Assembly: GCA_963764165.1 (NCBI GenBank)
Contig: CAVXRD010000004.1
Coordinates: 464,164 to 528,163, forward strand
Length of the DNA: 64,000 nucleotides
Source of the DNA: an uncultured Verrucomicrobiae bacterium
GTDB taxonomy: Bacteria; Verrucomicrobiota; Verrucomicrobiia; Limisphaerales; Palsa-1400
Reading direction: 5' to 3'
Position 1 is the first letter of the stretch. Every line of letters begins with the position of its first letter. The notes beneath the pieces are model-generated. The model did not search any database and was not told the origin of the DNA. It was given only the letters and a program-made list of their open reading frames with translations. The translations under genes and the position numbers were made by a program. Shown in pieces: positions 35,967 through 48,626 of the stretch.

Positions 35967-37302
35967 GGTTCCTCCACATTTTCAGTGGAATTAGTGCCGG
36001 GCTCTGGCTATGCCTTGGGCATGACGCCAGAAAAATTATTTCACGAATTGTTGGGACTCGGAATGAAGTGGGAAGTCACCGAAAGCCGTTTTGAATCCAG
36101 CAGCGGGACGGTATCCTTGGAAATCCGTGAAACCTCGGAGCTATGGCCCACGCTTCGCTGCCCCAAGGACGGCGGATTGGTTTCTTGCTACGACCACACC
36201 GAATCGCTGACCTGGCGCCACCTCAATGTTTTCCAGCATCGCTGTGAGATCACCTGCCGGCTGCCGCGCGGCAACTGCCGCCAGTGCGGCCATGTCTTTC
36301 GGGTGCGCCCGCCTTGGGAGGGGTTGAGCACTCACTTCACCAAAGGGTTCGAAGCCTTCGCGCTCCTGCTCATGCGCGAGATGCCCATGGCCAAAGTGGC
36401 CGAGGTGACCCAGGAGAGCGACATGCGCCTGTGGCGGATGCTCTTCAAGCATGTGGAGGGCGCTTACGCCCAAGCCGATTTTAGCAACGTCTGCTGCGTG
36501 GGCGTCGACGAGATGGCCCTGCGCAAGGGCCAGCATTACATGAGTGTCTTTGCCGATTTGGCGGCCAAGAAGGTGATCTTCGCCACCGAAGGCCACGGCC
36601 ACCAGAACGTGGGAAGTGTTTGTCCAGGCCTTGGAGGCTCACAACGGCGATCCGCGCGCCATCACCCAGGTGAGCATGGATATGAGCGCGGGCTACCAGA
36701 AGGGAGTCCAGGAGAACTGCAAAAACGCGCGGGTCGTTTTTGATAAGTTTCACGTCTTGGCCAATGCCAGCAAGGCGGTGGACCAAGTGCGCCGGGCGGA
36801 GTCGCAGGTGGGCGGGCAGGAGGCGCGGGAGTCGCTGCGCAAGAGCCAGTGGCTCTGGCGCAAGAACCCGGAGAACCTCAACGAGGAGGAGGCGGCCCGG
36901 CTGGCCAAGATCGAAGAAAAAAATCTCTGCACCAGCAAGGCCTATCAGATGCGCCTGGTCCTGCAGGACATCTATCGCAGCCCCACCGCCGGAGAGGCTC
37001 AAAAGCGTTTTAAGATCTGGTGCCGCTGGGTGCGGTGGGTGGCGCGATTTTACAAGTCCTACATTTTCAAGGCCATGGTCAGGATGGCCGACCAGATCAC
37101 CGATCACCTGCAGGGCATCCTGGCCCACTGGAAATCGGGATTGACCAACGCCTTTATGGAAGGACTCAACAGCGTCTTCAGCGCTGTCAAACGCAAGGCC
37201 CGCGGGTTTCGTTCCCCCGTTTACCTCACCACCATGCTCTATCTGGTGGCCGGAAAACTCCGCCTCCCCCATTTCTAATTCCACTGAAAACGTGGAGGAA
37301 CC
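35967..37302 (+). mobile_element. ISL3-family insertion sequence (1336 bp) with 28-bp inverted repeats and an 8-bp TSD
   Basis: IRL GGTTCCTCCACATTTTCAGTGGAATTAG (35967-35994) against IRR 37275-37302, 27/28 matches. Direct repeat TCACAAAT at 35959-35966 and 37303-37310. Confidence 0.85.
36021..37278 (+). pseudogene. ISL3-family transposase interrupted by a +1 frame change near 36585-36592
   Basis: N-terminal zinc-finger-like CPKDGG...CRQCGH, then VDEMALRKGQHYMSVFADL. The reading frame jumps between ORF 35985..36743 and ORF 36616..37278 (DMSAGYQKGV...FDKFHV...). Confidence 0.8.
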
Positions 37303-38176: not shown

Positions 38177-39778
38177 ATGCAAAACAAACCGCTTACCCAT
38201 GACGGCGCTTCCAACTCTTTTGTACACAAACATGCTTCCTCAATTCTAGGAGTTCTTTCGGGCTTTGATCGCCTGCGATTGCGCGGGACGCTGCGCCAGT
38301 TGTACGGCCCCCAGGTGATGGAGGCCTACTTGAACGCCTGCCACATTCTGATCAAGGATTTCAGCCAGTTGGTCGAACGGACCACCAAAGCGGTCAAAGA
38401 CAAAGCCAGGGCCCTGGCACAAACAGCCGGGCGGCCTTTTCTTTTCGTCCCCTCCAGCCAAACCAGCAAGGAGGAGGTGGCGCGCAAGATTGCCGCCCGC
38501 GATAAAATCACCGAGGGACTGATCGCCATTCTCAATTGCACGGAACCCTGCATGTCCTTTCAAGTCGTCGGAAACCCCCAAACCAAACACATTGAGGTGA
38601 AGGTTCAGCAGCGCAAGTGCAGCCATCTTTATTTCTATTTCGAGCATTCCAAGTTTGGCTTCATGCACCTGCGCCTGCAAACCTGGTTTCCCTTCCAGAT
38701 TAATATCTGCCTCAATGGCCGGCATTGGCTGGGAAAGCAGTTGGATCAGGCAGGCATTGCCTATCAAAAGAAGGAGAACACCTTTTTGCGGGTGGCCGAT
38801 ATGGGGCGCGCTCAAGGCCTGCTGGACCAGCAACTGCAAACTGACTGGCCCAAGGAGCTGGGCCGGCTGCTCAATGAGGTTCATCCCCTGCACCGGTCGA
38901 TTTGCCAGCCGCTGAACCTCAAATACTATTGGAGCGCTTCGGACACCGAATATGCCACCGATGTCATTTTCAAGGAGCCCGAGAGCCTGGCCCGGCTTTA
39001 TCCCAGCCTGGTTCACCATGCCATCAGTTCCTTTTCCAGCGCGGACGTGATGAGGTTTTTGGGCCGATACGTTCCCATCAGCACGGGCAGGGTGTACGGC
39101 CAGTTTGAGGGCGAAATCACCAGCGACACCAAACGGCGGCCGGAGGGCGTGCGGGTCAAGCACAGTCTTAACGGCAACTCGATCAAATTTTACGACAAGC
39201 AGGGCTCGGTTTTGCGGATCGAAACGACGGTGACGCACCCGGAGGAATTTAAAGTTTATCGCAAACCGGAAGGCCGGCCCAAGGAGGCCAAACGCTGGCT
39301 GACATTGCGCCGGGGGCTGGCCGACCTGAAACGGCGCAAAGAAATCTCTCACCGGGCCAATGAACGTTATTTGCAGGCGTTGGGATCCGTCAGCGGAACG
39401 GTGCCGCTGTTCCAATGGGTTGAAAAATGCTGCAAGCCCCTGCGGCAGGCGGGGCGGCGCTACCGCGCCCTCAATCCTTGGGCCCCGGAGGACGGACGCC
39501 TTTTGGAAATGGTCAGCCAGGGAGAGTACGCCCTCAACGGCTTTCGCAGTCGAGACATTCGGCAGGCCTATTTTCCCAGCCGGTGCGATGACCGCGAACT
39601 CAAACGCAGAATGGGCTGGATTGGACGCCGACTGCGGCTCCTGCGAGCGCATGGCTTGATCGCCAAAGTCAGCGGCACCCACCGCTATGTTGTCACCGAG
39701 AAAGGGCGCACCACCATTACTGCGCTCTTGACCGCCCGCAAAGCGGACGTGGACAAATTGACCAAACTCGCCGCCTAA
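38177..39778 (+). CDS. hypothetical 533-aa protein, probably associated with a mobile element (family not identified)
   Basis: Long, clean ORF between REP-like repeats in the island. The segment VRVKHSLNGNSIKFYDKQGSVLRIETTVTHPEEFKVYR is reminiscent of xYDK...LRxE motifs in replication-initiator/transposase-like proteins. Confidence 0.5.
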   Translation: MQNKPLTHDGASNSFVHKHASSILGVLSGFDRLRLRGTLRQLYGPQVMEAYLNACHILIKDFSQLVERTTKAVKDKARALAQTAGRPFLFVPSSQTSKEEVARKIAARDKITEGLIAILNCTEPCMSFQVVGNPQTKHIEVKVQQRKCSHLYFYFEHSKFGFMHLRLQTWFPFQINICLNGRHWLGKQLDQAGIAYQKKENTFLRVADMGRAQGLLDQQLQTDWPKELGRLLNEVHPLHRSICQPLNLKYYWSASDTEYATDVIFKEPESLARLYPSLVHHAISSFSSADVMRFLGRYVPISTGRVYGQFEGEITSDTKRRPEGVRVKHSLNGNSIKFYDKQGSVLRIETTVTHPEEFKVYRKPEGRPKEAKRWLTLRRGLADLKRRKEISHRANERYLQALGSVSGTVPLFQWVEKCCKPLRQAGRRYRALNPWAPEDGRLLEMVSQGEYALNGFRSRDIRQAYFPSRCDDRELKRRMGWIGRRLRLLRAHGLIAKVSGTHRYVVTEKGRTTITALLTARKADVDKLTKLAA

Positions 39779-39959: not shown

Positions 39960-40274
39960 GTGAACGCTGTTGCGACACCGAACCATATTCACCTTGACGC
40001 CGAAGGGCGGGCCTGGATTGACGATAGCAACACCAAGGTTATCGAAGTTGTGTTGGATCACCTCGCCTATGGCTGGAGCGCGGATGAAATCCACGTCCAG
40101 CATCCACATCTTTCACTTGGGCAAATCCACGCCGCGCTTTCGTTCTATTTCGATCACCAGCCGGAATTCGACAGCCTGGTTGGGCAATCGCTTGAGCGGG
40201 CGAATAAGCGTGCCGCAGATTCCCAGGATTCACCCGGTCGCCGGCGGCTACGCGCACTGGGCAAGATTCGTTGA
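39960..40274 (+). CDS. DUF433-family protein (antitoxin-like HTH), GTG start
   Basis: IDDSNTKVIEVVLDHLAYGWSADEIHVQHPHLSLGQIHAALSFYFDHQPEFD matches the DUF433 pattern. Confidence 0.7.
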   Translation: MNAVATPNHIHLDAEGRAWIDDSNTKVIEVVLDHLAYGWSADEIHVQHPHLSLGQIHAALSFYFDHQPEFDSLVGQSLERANKRAADSQDSPGRRRLRALGKIR

Positions 40275-40386: not shown

Positions 40387-40641
40387 ATGCACTTTTCATC
40401 CGTGAAGGCGACGCAGACAGAACTGCGCAGAGACACTGGCCGCATTTTAGGAACAGTGATTCATGGACACCGCTCCGTCGAGCTTACCCAGCACGGGCAA
40501 ACCGTGGCGGATATCCAGCCTCATGCAAAGCCATTAAGCGGCGCCGAATTTGCCCGCCGGTGGAAAAACCGCAAACCGCTGGACAAGGCAACGGCGCGAG
40601 AAATCGCCGCAGCGATCAAATCCGTAGGTCATCCTGCGTGA
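40387..40641 (+). CDS. Phd/YefM-type antitoxin
   Basis: MHFSSVKATQTELRRDTGRILGTVIHGHRSVELTQHGQTVADIQP fits the Phd/YefM N-terminal pattern. GTGA overlap with a vapC-like start. Confidence 0.65.
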   Translation: MHFSSVKATQTELRRDTGRILGTVIHGHRSVELTQHGQTVADIQPHAKPLSGAEFARRWKNRKPLDKATAREIAAAIKSVGHPA

Positions 40642-40769
40642 GGTTTCTCATTGATACTTCCATCCTCATCGAAGCCGAGCGCCGGAGTTTTGGCCTTGGC
40701 GCTGGCTGCAGAAGGCCGAGGAAGTTCATAAATGCGACGCGACTTGCCCCGTTTTGCCCCCTGAGGTGA
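40638..40769 (+). pseudogene. truncated and frameshifted VapC (PIN) toxin remnant
   Basis: Starts VRFLIDTSILIEAER (PIN N-terminal Asp motif). The sensible sequence continues in another frame (LGAWLQKAEEV) and is lost at about 40.8 kb, where the AT-richer insert begins. Confidence 0.5.
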
Positions 40770-40830: not shown

Positions 40831-41685
40831 TTGATGGTCAAGGCGTCTGTTACCCTCAGCCGCTTCGTCGCACATAGCATGAAGACAACACATCACGGAT
40901 ATTTTCAATCGCTAGCGCGTGAATTGGAGTCGCAAGCGTCACGCGTCCGCCAACTGATTGGTGACGGACATTGGGCCCACGACGGGCGGCATAAGGAAGT
41001 ATTACTCCAAAGTCTTATCCGTCGCCACTGTCCGTCGACCGTCCTTGTTAGCACTGGCTTTGTCGTTTCATCTAACGATCCCGAGGTTCGCAGTAAGGAG
41101 CAAGACGTGTTGATAATTAACACATCCACCGAAGCGCCATTATTTCACCAAGGAGACTTGACAGTTGTGTTTCCGCATACCGTCATTGCGGCAATTTCGG
41201 TTAAAACCACGATGAATGATGAAACCCTCAAAGATGTCGTCGACGGACTCGCCACTGTGCGGGAAACCGCGAGAGACTGTCAGTGCAAAGCAAACCGAAT
41301 CTGTTGCTGCGGATTCTTTTTTAACATAAAGCCGATGATTCGCCAAAAACCTGAGGCGATTTATAAAAGTCTTAAAAAGCACATTCGATCCCGGCCTATT
41401 AAACCACCGCTCCTAGAAGACGGCCTTCCTCATATTGCAGGTCCTGATGCAATCGTGGAAGCAAATGACCTGTCATTTCTGTTAGACTATACCGTTAATA
41501 ATAATATATCCGCTGCAAAAGTCCGCGGTTTCGATTGCCCGGGACTTTCCACCGCTGTATTTCTTTCATGTCTATTAGAACACATTAACTTCTTTTTTGA
41601 TCAAAGGCATTCGAAATTTAACGATTTACTTTCGAATCAACGGCTCGAAAGCATTTCGCCTCCCGAGTTTCAGATTTTACCCTGA
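40831..41685 (+). CDS. DUF6602-like protein (restriction-endonuclease-like core suspected)
   Basis: GRHKEVLLQSLIRRHCPSTVLVSTGFVV...SKEQDVLIINT...VIAAISVKTT matches my recollection of the DUF6602 pattern. The start is probably internal (MKTTHHGYF at 40879). Confidence 0.55.
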   Translation: MMVKASVTLSRFVAHSMKTTHHGYFQSLARELESQASRVRQLIGDGHWAHDGRHKEVLLQSLIRRHCPSTVLVSTGFVVSSNDPEVRSKEQDVLIINTSTEAPLFHQGDLTVVFPHTVIAAISVKTTMNDETLKDVVDGLATVRETARDCQCKANRICCCGFFFNIKPMIRQKPEAIYKSLKKHIRSRPIKPPLLEDGLPHIAGPDAIVEANDLSFLLDYTVNNNISAAKVRGFDCPGLSTAVFLSCLLEHINFFFDQRHSKFNDLLSNQRLESISPPEFQILP

Positions 41686-41695
41686 CTCTTCGCCT

Positions 41696-44600
41696 TCACG
41701 TTAAGCTTTGCACCGCGATTGGTCCCGCAAAAGCGATAGCAATATAAGCATGAGCAATCTCTCCCTGCCTCGGCCATCGCTCATGACGACTGAGCAAAAA
41801 ATCCCGACCGAATTCCTCAACTTTGAGGTAGTGCACTTCGGAATCACCGGTTATCACGCCCTGTACGGTCTTACGCACGCCCTCGCTATCGAGCAACACA
41901 GCACGAGGGTCATGCAACTGTTCCCGTGGAATCCGAGCCCTACGCAACTGAGAGAACATGGGCTCGGCCTCGGCCCACTTATGTTGTTGAACCAACGCGA
42001 CCGCGCATACAAATTTGTAAAATGGATCGCCGGAATATTTTGCTGTCGCCAGAACTGTTCTTCCCAATTCGAACAAAAATGCCCAATCAATAACGCGGTT
42101 TCGCACCTTAGAATCGTAACGGCTCACATTCCATTCGTAGTAGATGCTAGCCGCTGCCGCACACAAATCCCCCGACGGCGATAGGTTCTCCGCTTGAACC
42201 ATCTCAATGATCCTTTTACAATACGCAAATGCGTCGTTATATGCACTTCCCGCGTTCTTCTCGCGGGCCACATTTAACATTTTGCGCGCGGCTATAACAA
42301 AACCCTCTGGCCTCTTGAACTGCAGCCATAAGTCTTCGGCGCTCGCCTTAAGTTCGTCCAAAGGCGCCGTCCTTGCCTGCAATTTCCCCGATATGTCCTC
42401 CAAAAATTCAATATCTTTTGTTGGTTGGTCACGAGCTGGTCGCAATGGGTTCTTAAGTACAAGAAGTGACGAATCCACTGCGTCCAGCGCTTGATTCAAT
42501 AAAGTAAAAATATCCGCCGAAGCGATATCATTCAGTTCCGAAATCAACCTCAGCATAAGATTTGCCTGAACATGCACCGCCCGCGAATTAAAAAACGCAT
42601 CAGAACGCGCGTGGTCTAAATGACGCAATATCTCCGGCAAGCTCTCTTCGAGCCGTACGCGCCCAGCGTCCGCAGCATCGAGAATCGTAGCTGCCAAAGA
42701 CGTATGCACGTGCTCATCGGCTTCAACGCGGTCGGTGTACGGATAACTCCTCGTCACAAGCGCCGTTTCCAAAACCGACTTTGCGAATAAAGGATCATTC
42801 CCTTTTGACTTAATCCACAACCCTTTTTGATGAACTAACGTCCGGTCCGGTAGCGGCAACGCAGAAAGCGCAGTATCATAGAGCTGCAGTCCGTCCGAGT
42901 ACTCTAAATGGTTCAATTTGCTACAGGGAACCAATATACTAACAGAGAACTCCCTATAAACCAAACTCGTCCCGGTGCATGCTTTGAGAAGAGTCAAAAG
43001 ACGTTCGACCTCACCAGTATGTGCTAACTTGCCGCCGTTGATCGTCTCTATTAAAGTGCGCGTTACAACAGAGTTACGAGGTCTGTAGCATTTTGTTGCG
43101 CCATCTGGAGTCGCTTCACCATACAACAAGCCCCACGCTGGGCCCTTTTGATCAACCGCATCTACCCACTCTCGGTAAGAAATGTCTAATGCCGACACCA
43201 GCACCTCGACTGGCAGCGGCGTGTGGTAGTGATCGCACACCGCAGCCATCGCGTAAGCTTGCTTTAAGAAGGCCGAGGTTTTGTTATATGCACCGATAAT
43301 AACACGTGACAATCCACCCCGCTCTCCCAAACGCAAATATTCCTCTTGAATACTCGCCTCGATACTTTGTCGGGTCTTTGGCAAGAGCCAATATAGGAGG
43401 CCAAGCGTATCCGCCGTCCCGCGACTCGGGAAATTGGCAAGTTCAGCCTGCGCCTTGCCCTTATCAGGGAATACATTCAGGTGAACCAAATAATTTGGAA
43501 AGCTAGCTATCTCCTGCGCGTCGAAATCATCGAGCAAATTGAACTCGCGCTGCAATTCGAGCGTGCCAATCAAATCTTCAGGGTCGTTCGTCTTCCAGTC
43601 AGAAGTTCGTACAACAACGACAAATGTGCATCGAATACCGTTGTTTTGTGCGCTTGCGGCGATCGACGACACGGACAAAGAACCTAATCCAACTGGATCA
43701 TCAATAAAAAAGAAAACGCGCCGCTTATTGTCTGTAATACTGCTAAGTGTCTTAAAAAAATGACCTAGTGATGTTTGAACATTCGGATAAAAGGATCTAC
43801 GAAACCAAAAGACAAGATTTCCTTTAAACGCTAGGTCATACGCCAATCTTTTTGCTATCGTGGTTTTGCCGGATGCCGCGCTGCCAACCAGAGCGTACAC
43901 AGGCAATGCTCGAGTTATTCGTGGTGGTTTCAAAATACTGTCTTGCAATTGGTTCTCAATTGTCCGGCGGAAATCTAGCTTGTGAAAGAACGGATCCCAA
44001 GATGGAAGATTCGGGGAAAACAGCAAATCTAATAATCGCACCCTTTCTCCCTCGCTTATTTGCGATACAAGTTGCGCATTGACAACGGTGACGATATCAT
44101 TAAAAGGTATCAGCCGATCAAACTCTGATTCTTTCTTGTACAAGGCAAGTGGCTGCGTTTGTCCAGCTCCTTCCAAATCCTTCAATCGACTTATCAACTC
44201 GGGGAGACCTGCGTCCACAAAAACTACATGCAACTTTCCCGAGGTTAGCTGAAGAATAGCATTATACTCCTTTTGCGTAAATTCGGTCTTTACCAAAACC
44301 AGCGGATCTATGAAAGTCTTTCGGTCTGATAACATTTGCGACAAAAGATCAATGAAAGACCAAAGACTGCCTTTTAGGCCGAGGCATACGACGGGGTTGC
44401 CTTGCACCTTATCGGCAAAATCTTGAACGGCAAAACGCCACGTTGGGCGCCGCGCAGTGTAAATCAAGTCCGTGTATACGAAATGTTCTTCAGTATTACC
44501 AAGCAATTTAAATATTGGTACACACTTCGGCGGTAAAGGTTGGGGAAAATCCAGCACCTGTGTTGGAATCGACGCTGTAGGCTTTCGCTCTCGCTCTCTT

Positions 44601-44935
44601 AACAGTTCTTGATCAAAAATGGAATCTATAGCTAAGGAGATTACAGCAGACCATTTCAACGCGGAAATTCGTTTGATGTATTGATAGGCTTTCTGTCCTT
44701 TCAGGAATGCCTGAATAAACCCCTTTATGTCGTTTGGATCGATCCCCTGATCCACCGCGTGCTGTGCGTTCTGCAGATAGTTCTGAGTGCCATTCCCTCC
44801 CCATTTTGACGCGATCCCCGCTGACAAGTCGTGGTAAAAATCGCCTTCCGCGGTGATCCCGGGCCCGAAAATTAACCCCATCCGGCCGCGGAACAGCGGC
44901 TCGGCTTCGTCAATCGTAATGGTTTGCACGCCCAT
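41696..44935 (-). CDS. SIR2-like N-terminal domain / P-loop STAND NTPase / helical-repeat protein (Avs5-like architecture)
   Basis: GRMGLIFGPGIT (aa 17-28); ISLAIDSIFDQE (aa 99-110); KLLG (aa 143-146). Walker A GSAASGKT (aa 351-358) and Walker B VFFFIDD (aa 407-413). About 600 aa of helical C-terminal region. Confidence 0.7.
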   Translation of the reverse strand: MGVQTITIDEAEPLFRGRMGLIFGPGITAEGDFYHDLSAGIASKWGGNGTQNYLQNAQHAVDQGIDPNDIKGFIQAFLKGQKAYQYIKRISALKWSAVISLAIDSIFDQELLRERERKPTASIPTQVLDFPQPLPPKCVPIFKLLGNTEEHFVYTDLIYTARRPTWRFAVQDFADKVQGNPVVCLGLKGSLWSFIDLLSQMLSDRKTFIDPLVLVKTEFTQKEYNAILQLTSGKLHVVFVDAGLPELISRLKDLEGAGQTQPLALYKKESEFDRLIPFNDIVTVVNAQLVSQISEGERVRLLDLLFSPNLPSWDPFFHKLDFRRTIENQLQDSILKPPRITRALPVYALVGSAASGKTTIAKRLAYDLAFKGNLVFWFRRSFYPNVQTSLGHFFKTLSSITDNKRRVFFFIDDPVGLGSLSVSSIAASAQNNGIRCTFVVVVRTSDWKTNDPEDLIGTLELQREFNLLDDFDAQEIASFPNYLVHLNVFPDKGKAQAELANFPSRGTADTLGLLYWLLPKTRQSIEASIQEEYLRLGERGGLSRVIIGAYNKTSAFLKQAYAMAAVCDHYHTPLPVEVLVSALDISYREWVDAVDQKGPAWGLLYGEATPDGATKCYRPRNSVVTRTLIETINGGKLAHTGEVERLLTLLKACTGTSLVYREFSVSILVPCSKLNHLEYSDGLQLYDTALSALPLPDRTLVHQKGLWIKSKGNDPLFAKSVLETALVTRSYPYTDRVEADEHVHTSLAATILDAADAGRVRLEESLPEILRHLDHARSDAFFNSRAVHVQANLMLRLISELNDIASADIFTLLNQALDAVDSSLLVLKNPLRPARDQPTKDIEFLEDISGKLQARTAPLDELKASAEDLWLQFKRPEGFVIAARKMLNVAREKNAGSAYNDAFAYCKRIIEMVQAENLSPSGDLCAAAASIYYEWNVSRYDSKVRNRVIDWAFLFELGRTVLATAKYSGDPFYKFVCAVALVQQHKWAEAEPMFSQLRRARIPREQLHDPRAVLLDSEGVRKTVQGVITGDSEVHYLKVEEFGRDFLLSRHERWPRQGEIAHAYIAIAFAGPIAVQSLT

Positions 44936-45114
44936 CTGCTTCCGAGTACGAGACTACGCCCGAATATCCCGAAGAAGCAAACCCATTCTGCCTACTGATC
45001 CAGTTTCTGCTGACGCCCCTTTTGAACGCGATCTGGGTCGGTCCATCAAGGGTGAACGGCAAACGCGCATTTCGGATTTGGATTCTGCTTTGGCGCGGGT
45101 ATCCTCTGAGCGAC

Positions 45115-45389
45115 ATGCCCACCCGTGCCGCGAAGCCAAGGAATCGGAACGCGCAAGCCATAATTTTGCGACGACACATTGGTCGGTGGTTTTGGCTGCG
45201 GGGCGGCAGGACACCGCTCGCGCTCGCGGAGCTTTGGAGAACCTTTGCCAGACTTACTGGTTTCCGCTCTATGCTTATGTTCGGCGAAATGGGCGGCCTC
45301 CGGAAGGTGCCAAAGATCTGACGCAGGGTTTTTTTATTCGGCTGATAGACCATCAATCGCTGGCCAATGCCGACGGTTCTTATCCCTAA
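45115..45389 (+). pseudogene. 5' fragment of an ECF-type sigma-70 factor gene (frameshifted and truncated)
   Basis: HNFATTHWSVVLAAGRQDTARARGALENLCQTYWFPLYAYVRRNGRPPEGAKDLTQGFF is a typical N-terminus of PVC/Acidobacteria ECF sigma factors. The ATG at 45115 is in a different frame, and the ORF ends at the relB repeat junction. Confidence 0.5.
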
Positions 45390-45604
45390 AACTCATCCGC
45401 CAGCGAATTGCGGCGGGCGGGCGGGCTCAGAACCTCGTCTTCCGGGCTGTCTGCCTGGACAGGGAACGGGATGGCCCGCCGTGTCATGATCTGCTTGTAA
45501 AAAAGCTCCAATGCCGCCCGCGGTTTCAGGCCAATCTCTTCCAAGACGGCTTCAGCCTGGCGTTTTAGCACGGGGTCAATACGGCTTCTGGCTCCTGCGC
45601 CCAT
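45386..45604 (-). CDS. RelB/DinJ-family antitoxin, orphan copy (toxin gene lost)
   Basis: Near-identical to 52538..52756. Only about 4 codons of the mazF-like partner remain downstream. Confidence 0.65.
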   Translation of the reverse strand: MGAGARSRIDPVLKRQAEAVLEEIGLKPRAALELFYKQIMTRRAIPFPVQADSPEDEVLSPPARRNSLADEF

Positions 45605-45650: not shown

Positions 45651-48626
45651 TTATTCGCGCAACCTGAAGAACATGGTTCCCGAGGCGGTCGAGATGGTGA
45701 CGCTCCGGGTCGTGCCGTTGTCGGTAACCGGCGCGGTAACCGGACTCCAGCCGGAACCGCCGAGGTCGGAGGTCTGCTCGAGGACGTAGCCAGATTGGGA
45801 CGAGGGCCAGGAGATTACGATGGTGGAGGCGCTGCCGCCGCCGCTTCCGGCCCGGGTTAGCACGATTTGAAGTGAGGGATGCGGTGGCGTGGCTTCGGCC
45901 AGGCTGAATGCAAAAATCGTACCGCGGCCCGCAGCTCCTCCGTTGGCGGTGGTGGTGTAAAGCGTGTTCCCAATGATGGTGACGCCGGAATACGGATTGG
46001 CGCCGTCGAGATTGGTCTGGACAAAAAGGTTGGTGTCGGAGTTGAGCGCACTGAACGAGTAAAGGGTCACAAAACCGCTGCCGTCGTTGGTGTCCACTTC
46101 GAAAATCGTGCCGGAACTGTTCGCGCCTCCGCCCTCGGCCGTGCCGTACAAAGTCGCGCCGTTCAGCAGCAGCGCGCCTTCGGGATTCATGCCGTCGCTG
46201 TTGGTTTCAAGCAGCGTGGCGAAGTCGTATTGCGACTGGCTGAAGCTGTGGAGAACGGCGTAGCCGGAGCCGTCGGTGTTGATCTTGAAGACGCTGCCGC
46301 TGGAATTCGTGCCGCCAAGGCGGGTTGTGCCAAAGAGGGTGTTGCCCGCCTGGATCAGGCCGCCGTAAGGCTGGCCGAAGCCGTCGGCAAAGTTATGCAG
46401 CACATGAAAACCATTGCCACTGACGTTCACGGCGAAGAGCGCGCCCTCGCCGTTGGCGCCGCCCTGGCTGGCCGTGCCGTAAAGTGTGACGCCATCGCTG
46501 CCAAGCAGAAGAGGCGCGAGCGGATAGGCGCCGTCCGCGTTGGTCAGGCTGTAATTGGCCGTGTCGAACGTCACGGCCGAGAACTGATGGATAGGCGCGA
46601 GACCGCCCTCGCCAGCCGAGAAGATCGTCCCGGTATTGTTCGCTCCGCCGTAGCCGGTGTTGCCGTAGACCAAATTGCCGACGACAATGACGCCGCTGGG
46701 AAAGCTGCCTTGGCTGAAATCGCAAAGGGTGCTGAAGCCGGAGCCGTTGGTGCCAATGCTAAAGACCGTCCCGCCGCCAAACGCGCCCCCGGTTTGGGCC
46801 GTGCCGTAAAGCGCATCGCCGACGCAAACCAACGTCGCCACCGGCGACGCGCCGTCCACGTTGGTCTGGCCGATGGTAGGCAGCGCGCTGAATTGGTAAA
46901 GTTCATCGAGGACGCCGTCACCGTTCGTGTCCAACGAATAAATGGTGCCTGAACCGAAATCGCCGCCTTTGGACATGACGCTGAAAAATCGACCGCCAGC
47001 CAGCGTGAGGCCGGCCCGGGGATTCGCACCGTCGCTGTTGGTGGAAGCATTGAGATTGGTGTTGTAACTATAGCCCTTGGCGCCGAAGGTGTAAGCCGTC
47101 TGGCAGCCGGCCGAGATGCTGGGGCCGAGCGAGCCGGGAGCCGTGCCGTTGGTGTTGGTCACGGTAAGAACCACGCCGTAGACGCCGGCATTGGTGAACG
47201 TATGCGCTGGATTTTGATTGGTGCTGGTCGAGCCGTCCCCGAATTTCCAGAGCCAATTAGTGATCGGCACCTCAAGCACGTCCGCGGAAGGCGCCGTAAA
47301 CTGCACCGCGAGCGGCGGTGGCCCGTTGGTCGGGGTGGCGGTGAAGACGACCAACGGGTAGTAGGCGGTGATGTTCGAGCCGCTCACCGAAATGGCGAGA
47401 CCCAAATTATTGGTCACGGTGAGCTTGGGAGTGTAAGACTTGGTTTTGGTCGAGAGATACTCGGTTTCGGGATTTTGGAGCGTGCTGAAAGTGTTATTGC
47501 CGAAGCTCCAATTCCACGAGACGATGGGGTTTCCAGCCGTGTCCTCGGACGGCCCATAAAACTGCACCAGAAGCGGCATGAACCCGTTGGTGGCCGAGAT
47601 CGAGAAATCGGCGCTCGGCGCGCCGACGGAGATGTTCGAAGGGCCGACGCCGGAAACCGCCACGCCATAAATGTTGGTGGCGACAAGGCTTACAACAAAG
47701 TTTGTATTCGTGACGTAGGTATGGGACGGGTTTTGCAGCGTGCTCGTGACGCCATCACCGAAATTCCAATTCCAGTTCGAGATGGCCGAGCCGCTGCTGT
47801 CGATGTTCGTGGCGTCGAATTGGACGGTGAGCGAAGCAGGGCCGTTGGTGGTGGACGCGGTGAAAGGGAGAGTGACGGCGGTGGGTGTGTAGACGATCGT
47901 GGCCTTGAGAGAAGCGGTGGCTTGGGCGGTGAAGGTAGTCACGGCAATTTCACCTTCCAAAGGTCCATTGGTCGTGAGCGACATATTGGTGTTGATCTTA
48001 TTCGTCCACGGGATGCCCGCATTCGTGAGCGTGGTATAGAACGACCACGATTCGATAGCATCCAACGCCAGATCAGCGCCGTATCCCTCGTACAAATCCT
48101 GGAAGGGCGCGCCAGAATTAAGGGTGGCAAGCGTCTCCCAGCCATAGAGGGCGGCGGCGCTCAAAAAGACGTTCGACCCGCCCGTCTCGCTCGATGGAAT
48201 GAAATACCAAAAGCCGTTCGATCCAAGGTAGGTGGCGCTGAGGTCGTCCGACCCGGGATAGGGACCCGAGTAGTCATCGTCCTGCGTCCACTGGCCGTTT
48301 ACCGTCGTGGTGATATTTGACGCCGTGCAAGCCGCAATCAGCAAATTGGTGCCCTGAGCCCAAACGGGAAATTGTTCCTGGCCTATGATCGAGATGGTCA
48401 GATTGTCATTTTCTTGAATCGACTCGACCTCGACACCAGTCAGGACACCGTCGTTGTAGATGTTTAGGGAGCCTGTCCCGGAACCGGAGCTGGAGCCGCT
48501 GGCGCTAAGGTTGAGTTGAACGGAAATCGTCCCCACCAGGTTGGATTGGGCCCTGGCAGTGGATTGAACGGAAAGGCAGGCCAACAGGGCAGCCATGATG
48601 GCGGCGAAAAAATATAAGTTCTTCAT
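45651..48626 (-). CDS. secreted protein with PKD domains and Gloeo_Verruco (GloVer) repeats
   Basis: Signal peptide. Three repeats of the type FGDGxTSTxQNPxHTY (PKD). Repeated GGxxGxGTIF...LYGTA units (GloVer-type). Confidence 0.8.
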   Translation of the reverse strand: MKNLYFFAAIMAALLACLSVQSTARAQSNLVGTISVQLNLSASGSSSGSGTGSLNIYNDGVLTGVEVESIQENDNLTISIIGQEQFPVWAQGTNLLIAACTASNITTTVNGQWTQDDDYSGPYPGSDDLSATYLGSNGFWYFIPSSETGGSNVFLSAAALYGWETLATLNSGAPFQDLYEGYGADLALDAIESWSFYTTLTNAGIPWTNKINTNMSLTTNGPLEGEIAVTTFTAQATASLKATIVYTPTAVTLPFTASTTNGPASLTVQFDATNIDSSGSAISNWNWNFGDGVTSTLQNPSHTYVTNTNFVVSLVATNIYGVAVSGVGPSNISVGAPSADFSISATNGFMPLLVQFYGPSEDTAGNPIVSWNWSFGNNTFSTLQNPETEYLSTKTKSYTPKLTVTNNLGLAISVSGSNITAYYPLVVFTATPTNGPPPLAVQFTAPSADVLEVPITNWLWKFGDGSTSTNQNPAHTFTNAGVYGVVLTVTNTNGTAPGSLGPSISAGCQTAYTFGAKGYSYNTNLNASTNSDGANPRAGLTLAGGRFFSVMSKGGDFGSGTIYSLDTNGDGVLDELYQFSALPTIGQTNVDGASPVATLVCVGDALYGTAQTGGAFGGGTVFSIGTNGSGFSTLCDFSQGSFPSGVIVVGNLVYGNTGYGGANNTGTIFSAGEGGLAPIHQFSAVTFDTANYSLTNADGAYPLAPLLLGSDGVTLYGTASQGGANGEGALFAVNVSGNGFHVLHNFADGFGQPYGGLIQAGNTLFGTTRLGGTNSSGSVFKINTDGSGYAVLHSFSQSQYDFATLLETNSDGMNPEGALLLNGATLYGTAEGGGANSSGTIFEVDTNDGSGFVTLYSFSALNSDTNLFVQTNLDGANPYSGVTIIGNTLYTTTANGGAAGRGTIFAFSLAEATPPHPSLQIVLTRAGSGGGSASTIVISWPSSQSGYVLEQTSDLGGSGWSPVTAPVTDNGTTRSVTISTASGTMFFRLRE

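Follow-up and report, generated by a model that had tools for sequence, protein, structure and literature searches.

A NucC-like nuclease gene joined tail to tail with a SAMD9/Avs5-like STAND gene: a candidate split immune module

A 64,000-nucleotide stretch of DNA from an uncultured Verrucomicrobiae bacterium (GenBank assembly GCA_963764165.1, contig CAVXRD010000004.1, positions 464,164 to 528,163 of the forward strand; termed the window below and numbered from its first nucleotide) contains a small gene of the Pfam family DUF6602 and a large gene for a STAND NTPase, which run toward each other and end 10 bp apart. The arrangement raises the question of whether the two genes act together and, if so, which of the two proteins is the enzyme and what controls it. 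The answer favored here, with moderate confidence, is that they form a split two-component STAND immune module of the Avs/SAMD9 kind, in which a nuclease encoded in trans is controlled by the large protein, the sensor. The features of the locus are as follows.

40879..41685, plus strand: gene for a 268-amino acid NucC-like PD-(D/E)xK nuclease (Pfam DUF6602), predicted active site E40, E74, D76, S107 and K109
41686..41695, no strand: tail-to-tail spacer of 10 bp between the two stops, without a terminator-like hairpin
41696..44935, minus strand: gene for a 1079-amino acid STAND NTPase of SAMD9/Avs5-like architecture
41000..44700, no strand: low-GC tract (0.40-0.54) inside the two genes, from the GC scan

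In the open reading frame (ORF) listing of the window the small gene appears as a 284-amino acid ORF that starts from a TTG (40831..41685, plus strand). Its homologues are ~268 amino acids long and align from the ATG at 40879, which is therefore taken as the gene start, in agreement with the first-pass annotation made from the sequence letters alone; the motifs GRHKE, EQDVLIIN and AISVKTT that it quoted are also found in the protein. The ORF is not a chance one because 45 close homologues were retrieved and an exhaustive search gave 2877 relatives, of which 254 clusters (50% identity) match at E <= 1e-30. The TGA of the DUF6602 gene ends at 41685 and the minus-strand STAND gene has its stop codon at 41696-41698, confirming the convergent layout and the 10-bp separation described earlier. 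No sigma-70 promoter or intrinsic terminator exceeded the shuffled expectation, and there is no terminator inside the 10-bp spacer.

A NucC homologue with a variant active site

The small protein matches Pfam DUF6602 (PF20247) over residues 47-145 of the 284-amino acid ORF (E = 8.3e-15; score 55 bits, cut-off 27) and is also matched by the PADLOC models PD_DExK (4.9e-20) and NucC (4e-7). NCBIfam gave nothing but a spurious sub-threshold match to PerRB. A single-sequence search of the PDB sequences finds Serratia NucC at E = 0.005, and a 121-sequence profile of the family finds Vibrio NucC at E = 1.4e-16 across positions 18-233. The AlphaFold (AF2) model of the nuclease has a predicted local distance difference test (pLDDT) value of 90.4. 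A Foldseek search with this model, as the first-pass annotation had proposed, gives strong PDB matches only to 14 NucC chains (E 1.4e-11 to 3e-9), with template modeling (TM) scores of 0.55-0.72 over ~250 columns. Profile and fold alike mark the DUF6602 protein as homologous to NucC along its full length, and the initial description of a DUF6602-like protein with a restriction-endonuclease-like core is thereby both upheld and refined. In common with NucC (PDB codes 6p7o, 6p7p, 6q1h, 6uxf and 7zgv) are a similar size, the spacing of the catalytic Asp and Lys, and a Glu on a helix (E40).

The next-best fold matches are weak and fall on the type IIF/IIP CCGG enzymes NgoMIV, Bse634I, Cfr10I and SgrAI (E 0.07-1), from which the protein differs in that there is no sign at this locus of sequence-specific recognition or of a cognate methyltransferase. 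The same Pfam domain is present in 'Damona' from Vibrio chromosomal integrons, which according to its authors also matches models of Cas PD_DExK and CBASS endonucleases (10.1101/2024.07.02.601686); unlike the gene described here, the 'Damona' cassette stands alone and lacks a STAND partner, and it is the only form in which DUF6602 was found in the literature searched.

The NucC motif is IDx30EAK, with Asp73 and Glu104 holding Mg2+ (10.1101/694703). The equivalent stretch of the DUF6602 protein reads Q-D76-x30-S107-V-K109, in which the gap of 31 residues from D76 to S107 equals that from Asp73 to Glu104, and the NucC motif is not matched in full, as Asp and Lys are kept at the proper spacing with Glu replaced by Ser. 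Conservation was counted over 175 members of at least 200 amino acids. D76 and K109 are each present in 175 of 175, E74 in 173 of 175, and E40 in all 172 relatives with a residue at that column. Position 107 is Ser in 153 relatives and otherwise Glu (6), Ala (6), His (5), Gln (3) or Gly (1), so that S107 is a trait of the clade and not a lesion of a single copy. The S-V-K that had been noticed in place of E-x-K is thus real and clade-wide, and its interpretation as a local inactivating mutation is rejected. The invariance or near invariance of D76, K109, E40 and E74 speaks for continued selection on the site. Two residues ahead of D76, on the strand that both share, E74 takes a position at which NucC has Gln, and this suggests that the second carboxylate of the site has moved. 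In the CCGG-family restriction enzymes NgoMIV, Cfr10I and Bse634I the active sites are of the Ser-x-Lys type, with the acidic residue supplied from elsewhere in the chain.

The composition of the site bears directly on an alternative in which the small protein is a pseudo-nuclease acting as a non-catalytic adaptor, a DNA-binding sensor or a regulator of the STAND protein, the toxic output coming from the SIR2-like domain, the OB-like domain or a host factor. Such a role would account for the loss of NucC Glu104 in most of the family and for an Asn at position 81 of the window copy where the family has Asp. It would not lead one to expect invariant D76 and K109 or almost invariant E40 and E74, which are out of place at a dead site, and it has to contend both with the working Ser-x-Lys sites of the restriction enzymes nearest to NucC and with a STAND protein that has no other recognizable effector domain. 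We regard this alternative as unlikely, though the strongest of those considered against a split sensor/effector module.

A second difference from NucC concerns its switch. NucC forms homotrimers, which join as a hexamer when the enzyme is activated. It is an endonuclease of CBASS and type III CRISPR systems that is activated by cyclic triadenylate (cA3) (10.1101/694703). Of the residues that form its cA3 pocket (R53, Y81 and T226/V227), R53 and Y81 correspond to T54 and T84 in the DUF6602 protein when positions are counted backward in the Serratia alignment, starting at the catalytic Asp, which makes the residue numbering approximate, and both columns are variable among the 175 relatives. In the model, helix 114-133 passes straight into strand 142-150, with no hairpin in place of the NucC gate loop (H136 and Y141). 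A CD-NTase or Cas10 gene was seen neither in the window nor among the genes tabulated for loci L037-L045. Since the cA3-pocket residues and the gate loop are lost, the alignment and the model indicate a NucC homologue that cannot be regulated in the way NucC is. The protein thus departs from NucC in the exchange of Glu104 for Ser, in the lost pocket and gate loop, in having no cyclase nearby and, as described below, in an apparently obligate STAND partner.

A STAND NTPase with a degenerate SIR2-like domain

The 1079-amino acid protein begins directly with its SIR2-like domain (strand 19-23, followed by a G-x-G loop at 24-26), and its subdivisions are as follows.

44186..44935, minus strand: N-terminal SIR2-like Rossmann domain (~residues 1-250), predicted to be non-catalytic
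43580..44005, minus strand: STAND P-loop NTPase core (Pfam nSTAND_NTPase5, residues 311-452)
41906..43018, minus strand: all-helical TPR-like repeat region (~residues 640-1010), the presumed sensor, placed by model secondary structure and the full-length SAMD9 alignment
41699..41878, minus strand: C-terminal five-stranded beta domain (~residues 1020-1079), OB-like by its position in the SAMD9-type architecture

The NTPase core matches nSTAND_NTPase5 at E = 8.5e-15 (55.3 bits against a cut-off of 34), with Walker A (GSAASGKT) at residue 351 and Walker B (FFFIDD) containing D412 and D413, both invariant among the homologues. The full-length model (pLDDT 82.3) has its best PDB fold matches in human SAMD9 (PDB codes 9zjv and 9zjr; E 1e-18 to 5e-18, ~1270 columns), with EfAvs5 (PDB code 9jap; 3.9e-17) following and then the AVAST5 filament, DSR2 and ThsA. 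In searches of the PDB sequences with both the sequence and the profile only P-loop noise is returned, and SAMD9 and Avs5 are not detectable by sequence; the first-pass annotation had not linked the protein to SAMD9, Avs5 or Avs9. No PADLOC v2.0.0 model matches the STAND protein at E <= 0.01, the C-terminal beta domain matches no Pfam family, leaving its OB identity as the probable one from position, and Pfam scans together with the layout of the model reveal neither an AlbA_2 domain nor any other recognizable effector domain.

The name SIR2-like STAND given to the protein at first reading stands as far as the fold is concerned and needs a qualifier as to the catalytic residues. A Pfam scan of residues 1-313 gives nothing even at E <= 10, and SIR2_2 is matched by 10 of 21 STAND homologues and iSirtuin by one; the profile of the N-terminal region finds the NADase ThsA at E = 4.6e-4, and the fold search agrees. 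In the ThsA alignment GAGLS is aligned with GpGit, TTNYD with S-l-t-l-D and KMHG with kLlG. The catalytic Asn is absent in all 21 homologues, with Ala, Thr or Ser in its place, Leu, Met or Cys stands where the catalytic His would be (Leu in the ThsA alignment), and the GAGxS loop is degraded. Because the catalytic Asn and His are missing, the domain is probably non-catalytic and not an NADase. One residue of the TTNxD-equivalent motif, D104, is invariant across the 21 homologues.

The conserved D104 could be taken to mean that the variant SIR2-like domain still makes or binds a nucleotide-derived molecule and that this molecule activates the nuclease allosterically, as cA3 does for NucC. SIR2 folds bind NAD, and NucC-family nucleases are classically ligand-gated (10.1101/694703), which lends the idea some appeal; set against it are the missing Asn and His, the degraded GAGxS loop and, on the nuclease side, the variable ligand positions (T54 and T84) and the model without a gate-loop hairpin. 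A relay of this kind is considered very unlikely.

The architecture of the STAND protein is close to that of two groups of systems. With Avs5 (AVAST type 5; PDB codes 9jap and 9nc9) it shares the order of SIR2-like domain, STAND NTPase and helical sensor. The effector of Avs5 is its SIR2 domain, an NADase for which N110, D112 and E202 are essential (10.1101/2025.07.08.663546); none of the homologues of the present protein has the Asn, and a nuclease gene accompanies the STAND gene at every readable locus. Avs5, Avs6 and Avs9 are themselves SAMD9-like families (PMC12680541, PMC12803255). With SAMD9 (architecture in PMC5445408) and Avs9 the protein shares a non-catalytic SIR2-like domain preceding the NTPase, helical repeats, a small C-terminal beta domain (with the OB identity presumed) and a nuclease as the likely effector. 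The SIR2-like domain of SAMD9 is non-catalytic and mediates autoinhibition as well as the SIR2/SIR2 and OB/SIR2 contacts needed for activation, with the nuclease effector tethered N-terminally (PMC13600222). The difference lies in the nuclease, which in SAMD9, SAMD9L and Avs9 is an AlbA_2 tRNase fused at the N terminus; the protein described here has no AlbA_2 or SAM domain, and an unrelated PD-(D/E)xK nuclease is encoded by the separate convergent gene.

Linkage of the two genes and a proposed mechanism

The pairing was assessed by tblastn of both proteins against all fetched loci, ~29 of which are distinct and have a readable neighborhood. Wherever a full-length DUF6602 homologue is followed by more than ~300 bp of sequence, a STAND homologue lies directly downstream of it, and the arrangement is tail to tail in ~28 of the ~29 loci. 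Stop-to-stop distances in related loci lie between -59 and +46 bp, with -4 or +4 to +10 being common. The linkage extends down to ~33% identity and includes metagenome-assembled genomes (MAGs) from Verrucomicrobiota, Planctomycetota and Phycisphaerales. The reverse approach, with four STAND homologues (32-47% identity) as starting points, finds a convergent gene of 249-276 amino acids directly downstream in all four cases; three of these genes match DUF6602, and for the fourth, beside P0067, no Pfam match is on record. The divergence of the two proteins is strongly correlated across 16 distinct pairs (Mantel r = 0.93; 0 of 2000 permutations as high). The two-gene sensor/effector pair suggested at first reading thus agrees with the co-occurrence data, the genes being adjacent wherever readable, mostly convergent and co-diverging; the lack of co-occurrence that the first-pass annotation had named as a refutation is clearly not what is seen. 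Coincidental adjacency within a single insert was considered and is rejected by the ~29 linked loci and the co-divergence.

The only co-directional locus (L033, 9974-13998) has the nuclease gene first and then the STAND gene with a 4-bp ATGA overlap, forming an operon with translational coupling. It is also the most distant pair (29% and 27% identity), and its nuclease has His-Val-Lys instead of Ser-Val-Lys. The initial remark that the genes are not an operon therefore holds at the window locus, where they are convergent, and does not extend to this distant pair. A stand-alone DUF6602 gene is present in a Pseudomonadota MAG (L005, 308-1087), carrying the canonical E-V-K with no STAND neighbor, which hints that the Glu or Ser state tracks the absence or presence of the STAND partner. 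An ORF a few kb from this gene looks DnaK/Hsp70-like by eye.

The same data bear on whether two independent single-gene systems, an Avs5-type SIR2-STAND NADase and a 'Damona'-type DUF6602 nuclease, simply travel together. Each has a precedent as a lone gene, Avs5 as a single-gene system (10.1101/2025.07.08.663546) and DUF6602 among anti-phage integron cassettes (10.1101/2024.07.02.601686), and defense genes do cluster. Independence is hard to reconcile with adjacency in all of the readable loci, overlapping stops, one operon-style lineage and the tight co-divergence, with the loss of the SIR2 catalytic residues, or with the association of Ser-x-Lys with linkage and of E-V-K with the unlinked gene, making this the least probable of the explanations considered.

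The base composition of the pair is distinct from its surroundings, with a GC content of 0.481 compared with 0.572 for the remainder of the window and 0.534-0.597, and none below 0.534, for same-sized windows elsewhere in it. The AT-richer insert reported in the first-pass annotation is therefore real, and a low-GC tract lying within both genes is consistent with the horizontal acquisition of the pair as a single unit; no direct or inverted repeats bounding the insert were found. The flanks of 18 loci contain no conserved third gene, the flanking genes differing between loci. Three of the 18 have homologous large serine recombinases directly past the STAND gene, which suggests that the pair is in some cases carried by recombinase-borne elements:

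L004, 15099-16607: serine recombinase
L010, 14387-15913: serine recombinase
L045, 15995-17269: serine recombinase

In the gene tables the neighbors of the pair are often restriction or McrB-like genes, methylases, insertion sequence (IS) elements and recombinases. A scan of viral contigs found only two partial fragments (residues 1-113) and no STAND gene, and a fold search of BFVD gave nothing significant, so that there is no evidence from these scans of carriage of the pair by phages.

Mobility could instead point to a non-immune function, either as a mobile element's addiction or maintenance module or in signaling unrelated to phages. The low GC of the horizontally mobile pair, the IS elements and serine recombinases near it in several loci and the toxin-antitoxin remnants that flank it in the window would all fit such a module. 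Its closest characterized relatives are antiviral (NucC on one side; Avs5, DSR2, ThsA and SAMD9 on the other), and the flanking elements vary from locus to locus, so that no single mobile element carries the pair. A non-immune role is judged improbable, somewhat more so than a pseudo-nuclease.

Several loci contain disrupted copies. Two of them, L044 and L045, have more divergent DUF6602 members and keep the linkage all the same. The STAND gene of L044 is split by frameshifted gene calls, and that of L045 (9252-15304, in a 6.6-Mb genome) is broken by two IS elements (Transposase_mut and ISL3) with the nuclease gene intact, which looks like a natural inactivation of the sensor. Four peatland metagenome contigs (L023, L024, L026 and L027; e.g. 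L024, 10001-12309) hold remnants of the module that keep nuclease residues 1-86 and STAND residues 25-605, and a single deletion across the tail-to-tail junction appears to have taken both 3' ends.

The favored split sensor/effector module follows from the combination of a STAND protein that has a sensor and a switch and no enzyme besides its NTPase with a partner enzyme whose known switch is lost. The 1079-amino acid protein would provide sensor and switch through its helical repeats, OB-like domain, P-loop oligomerization domain and SIR2-like domain, with no fused effector, and the 268-amino acid NucC-family DNA endonuclease would be the effector. In the proposed sequence of events a phage component would bind the STAND sensor, and the NTP-dependent switch would open to allow oligomerization with the SIR2-like domains touching each other as in SAMD9. 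The assembled platform could then recruit or release the nuclease, gathering nuclease oligomers so that their active sites come to lie side by side, cleave double-stranded DNA and thereby abort the infection. Control would probably be exerted by protein contact, through the SIR2-like platform. The conserved tail-to-tail layout with touching or overlapping stops implies separate promoters and complementary 3' transcript ends, and we speculate that the layout probably sets the relative dosage of the toxic effector and its controller.

A number of observations weigh against this module. The Ser in place of the Mg-binding Glu104 of NucC means that nuclease activity is not assured, and the window copy in addition has Asn-81 (codon 41119-41121) where Asp is found in 162 of the 175 relatives, and at the equivalent position of both aligned NucC sequences (Serratia and Vibrio), and Asn in only seven; this substitution could weaken or alter nuclease activity in this genome. 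NADase activity is retained by PaAvs5-1 although it lacks the canonical His, and NG is tolerated in place of HG (10.1101/2025.07.08.663546), so that loss of the motif does not strictly prove an inactive SIR2-like domain; however, the Asn on which PaAvs5-1 depends, the N110A mutation of PaAvs5 abolishing immunity (10.1101/2025.07.08.663546), is likewise missing from this STAND protein. The convergent orientation is unusual for partners needing co-expression. The fold and family assignments, the motif states, the near-obligate adjacency in readable loci, the co-divergence and the lack of a conserved third gene are observations; contact between the two proteins, cleavage by the Ser-x-Lys site, the trigger and the defense phenotype are inferred. 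The defense role is drawn from homology and from an impression of the neighborhood in gene tables, not from a defense-island statistic.

A more specific proposal, put forward tentatively and with more doubt than the split module itself, is that a NucC-family nuclease has exchanged its cyclic-nucleotide switch for a protein switch and that the dead SIR2-like domain is the docking and assembly platform that activates it in trans. If this were true, the pair would be a naturally split SAMD9 or Avs9, and the way it is regulated would include the conserved convergent arrangement and its overlapping stops.

The kind of system is already known (the Avs/SAMD9-type STAND), and what would be new is an effector encoded in trans. 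The two genes most likely represent a candidate anti-phage pair not described in the literature searched and not recognized as a pair by PADLOC v2.0.0. No paper among those searched ties a NucC-like protein to a STAND partner, and Kaur et al. 2020 (eLife 52696) makes no mention of SIR2, NucC, nSTAND or SAMD9. A NucC-type effector outside cyclic-oligonucleotide signaling would widen the range of control modes for this nuclease family, and the pair offers a bacterial module tied to the SAMD9/Avs5/Avs9 architecture in which the SIR2-like domain is clearly not the enzyme. As a two-protein system it could be used to probe the SIR2-like activation relay, an open question for the human SAMD9/9L disease alleles. 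The near-universal tail-to-tail layout, unusual for functional partners, also makes it a test case for regulation by convergent transcription.

Flanks of the pair in the window

The left flank of the pair is rich in toxin-antitoxin remnants, consisting of a Phd/YefM-like ORF, a short ORF that overlaps it and a DUF433 protein. The latter is encoded at 39960-40274 (Pfam E = 4.3e-9), and DUF433 proteins are usually annotated as antitoxin-like partners. The stretch 40387-40769 follows, in which a Phd/YefM-like antitoxin ORF (a weak Pfam match, E = 0.0026) shares at its end a GTGA overlap with the next ORF, which begins 'VRFLIDTSILIEAE' and stops after 43 amino acids, ~110 bp upstream of 40879 at the left edge of the insert. 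This short ORF has no Pfam match, and by reading it looks like the N terminus of a PIN/VapC toxin, whose gene may have been cut short on arrival of the pair.

Further to the left, an ISL3-family transposase at 35985-37278 is split over two overlapping ORFs (252 and 220 amino acids), the first with the zinc ribbon and helix-turn-helix and the second with most of the DDE domain, and this copy is probably frameshifted. Between it and the DUF433 gene a 533-amino acid ORF without a Pfam match (38177-39778) is wholly overlapped by a 553-amino acid ORF of the other strand, and one of them is presumably spurious.

On the right side an ORF at 44853-45389 (plus strand), lying between the STAND gene and a RelB gene, has no Pfam match, and part of it resembles, by reading, the N terminus of an extracytoplasmic function (ECF) sigma factor. 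The RelB-family antitoxin gene (45386-45604, minus strand; Pfam E = 5.8e-10) is an orphan with no obvious toxin partner. Directly to the right of the variable region, a gene at 45651-48626 (minus strand) encodes a secreted-looking protein of 991 amino acids with three PKD domains and long Gly/Thr/Ser-rich repeats.

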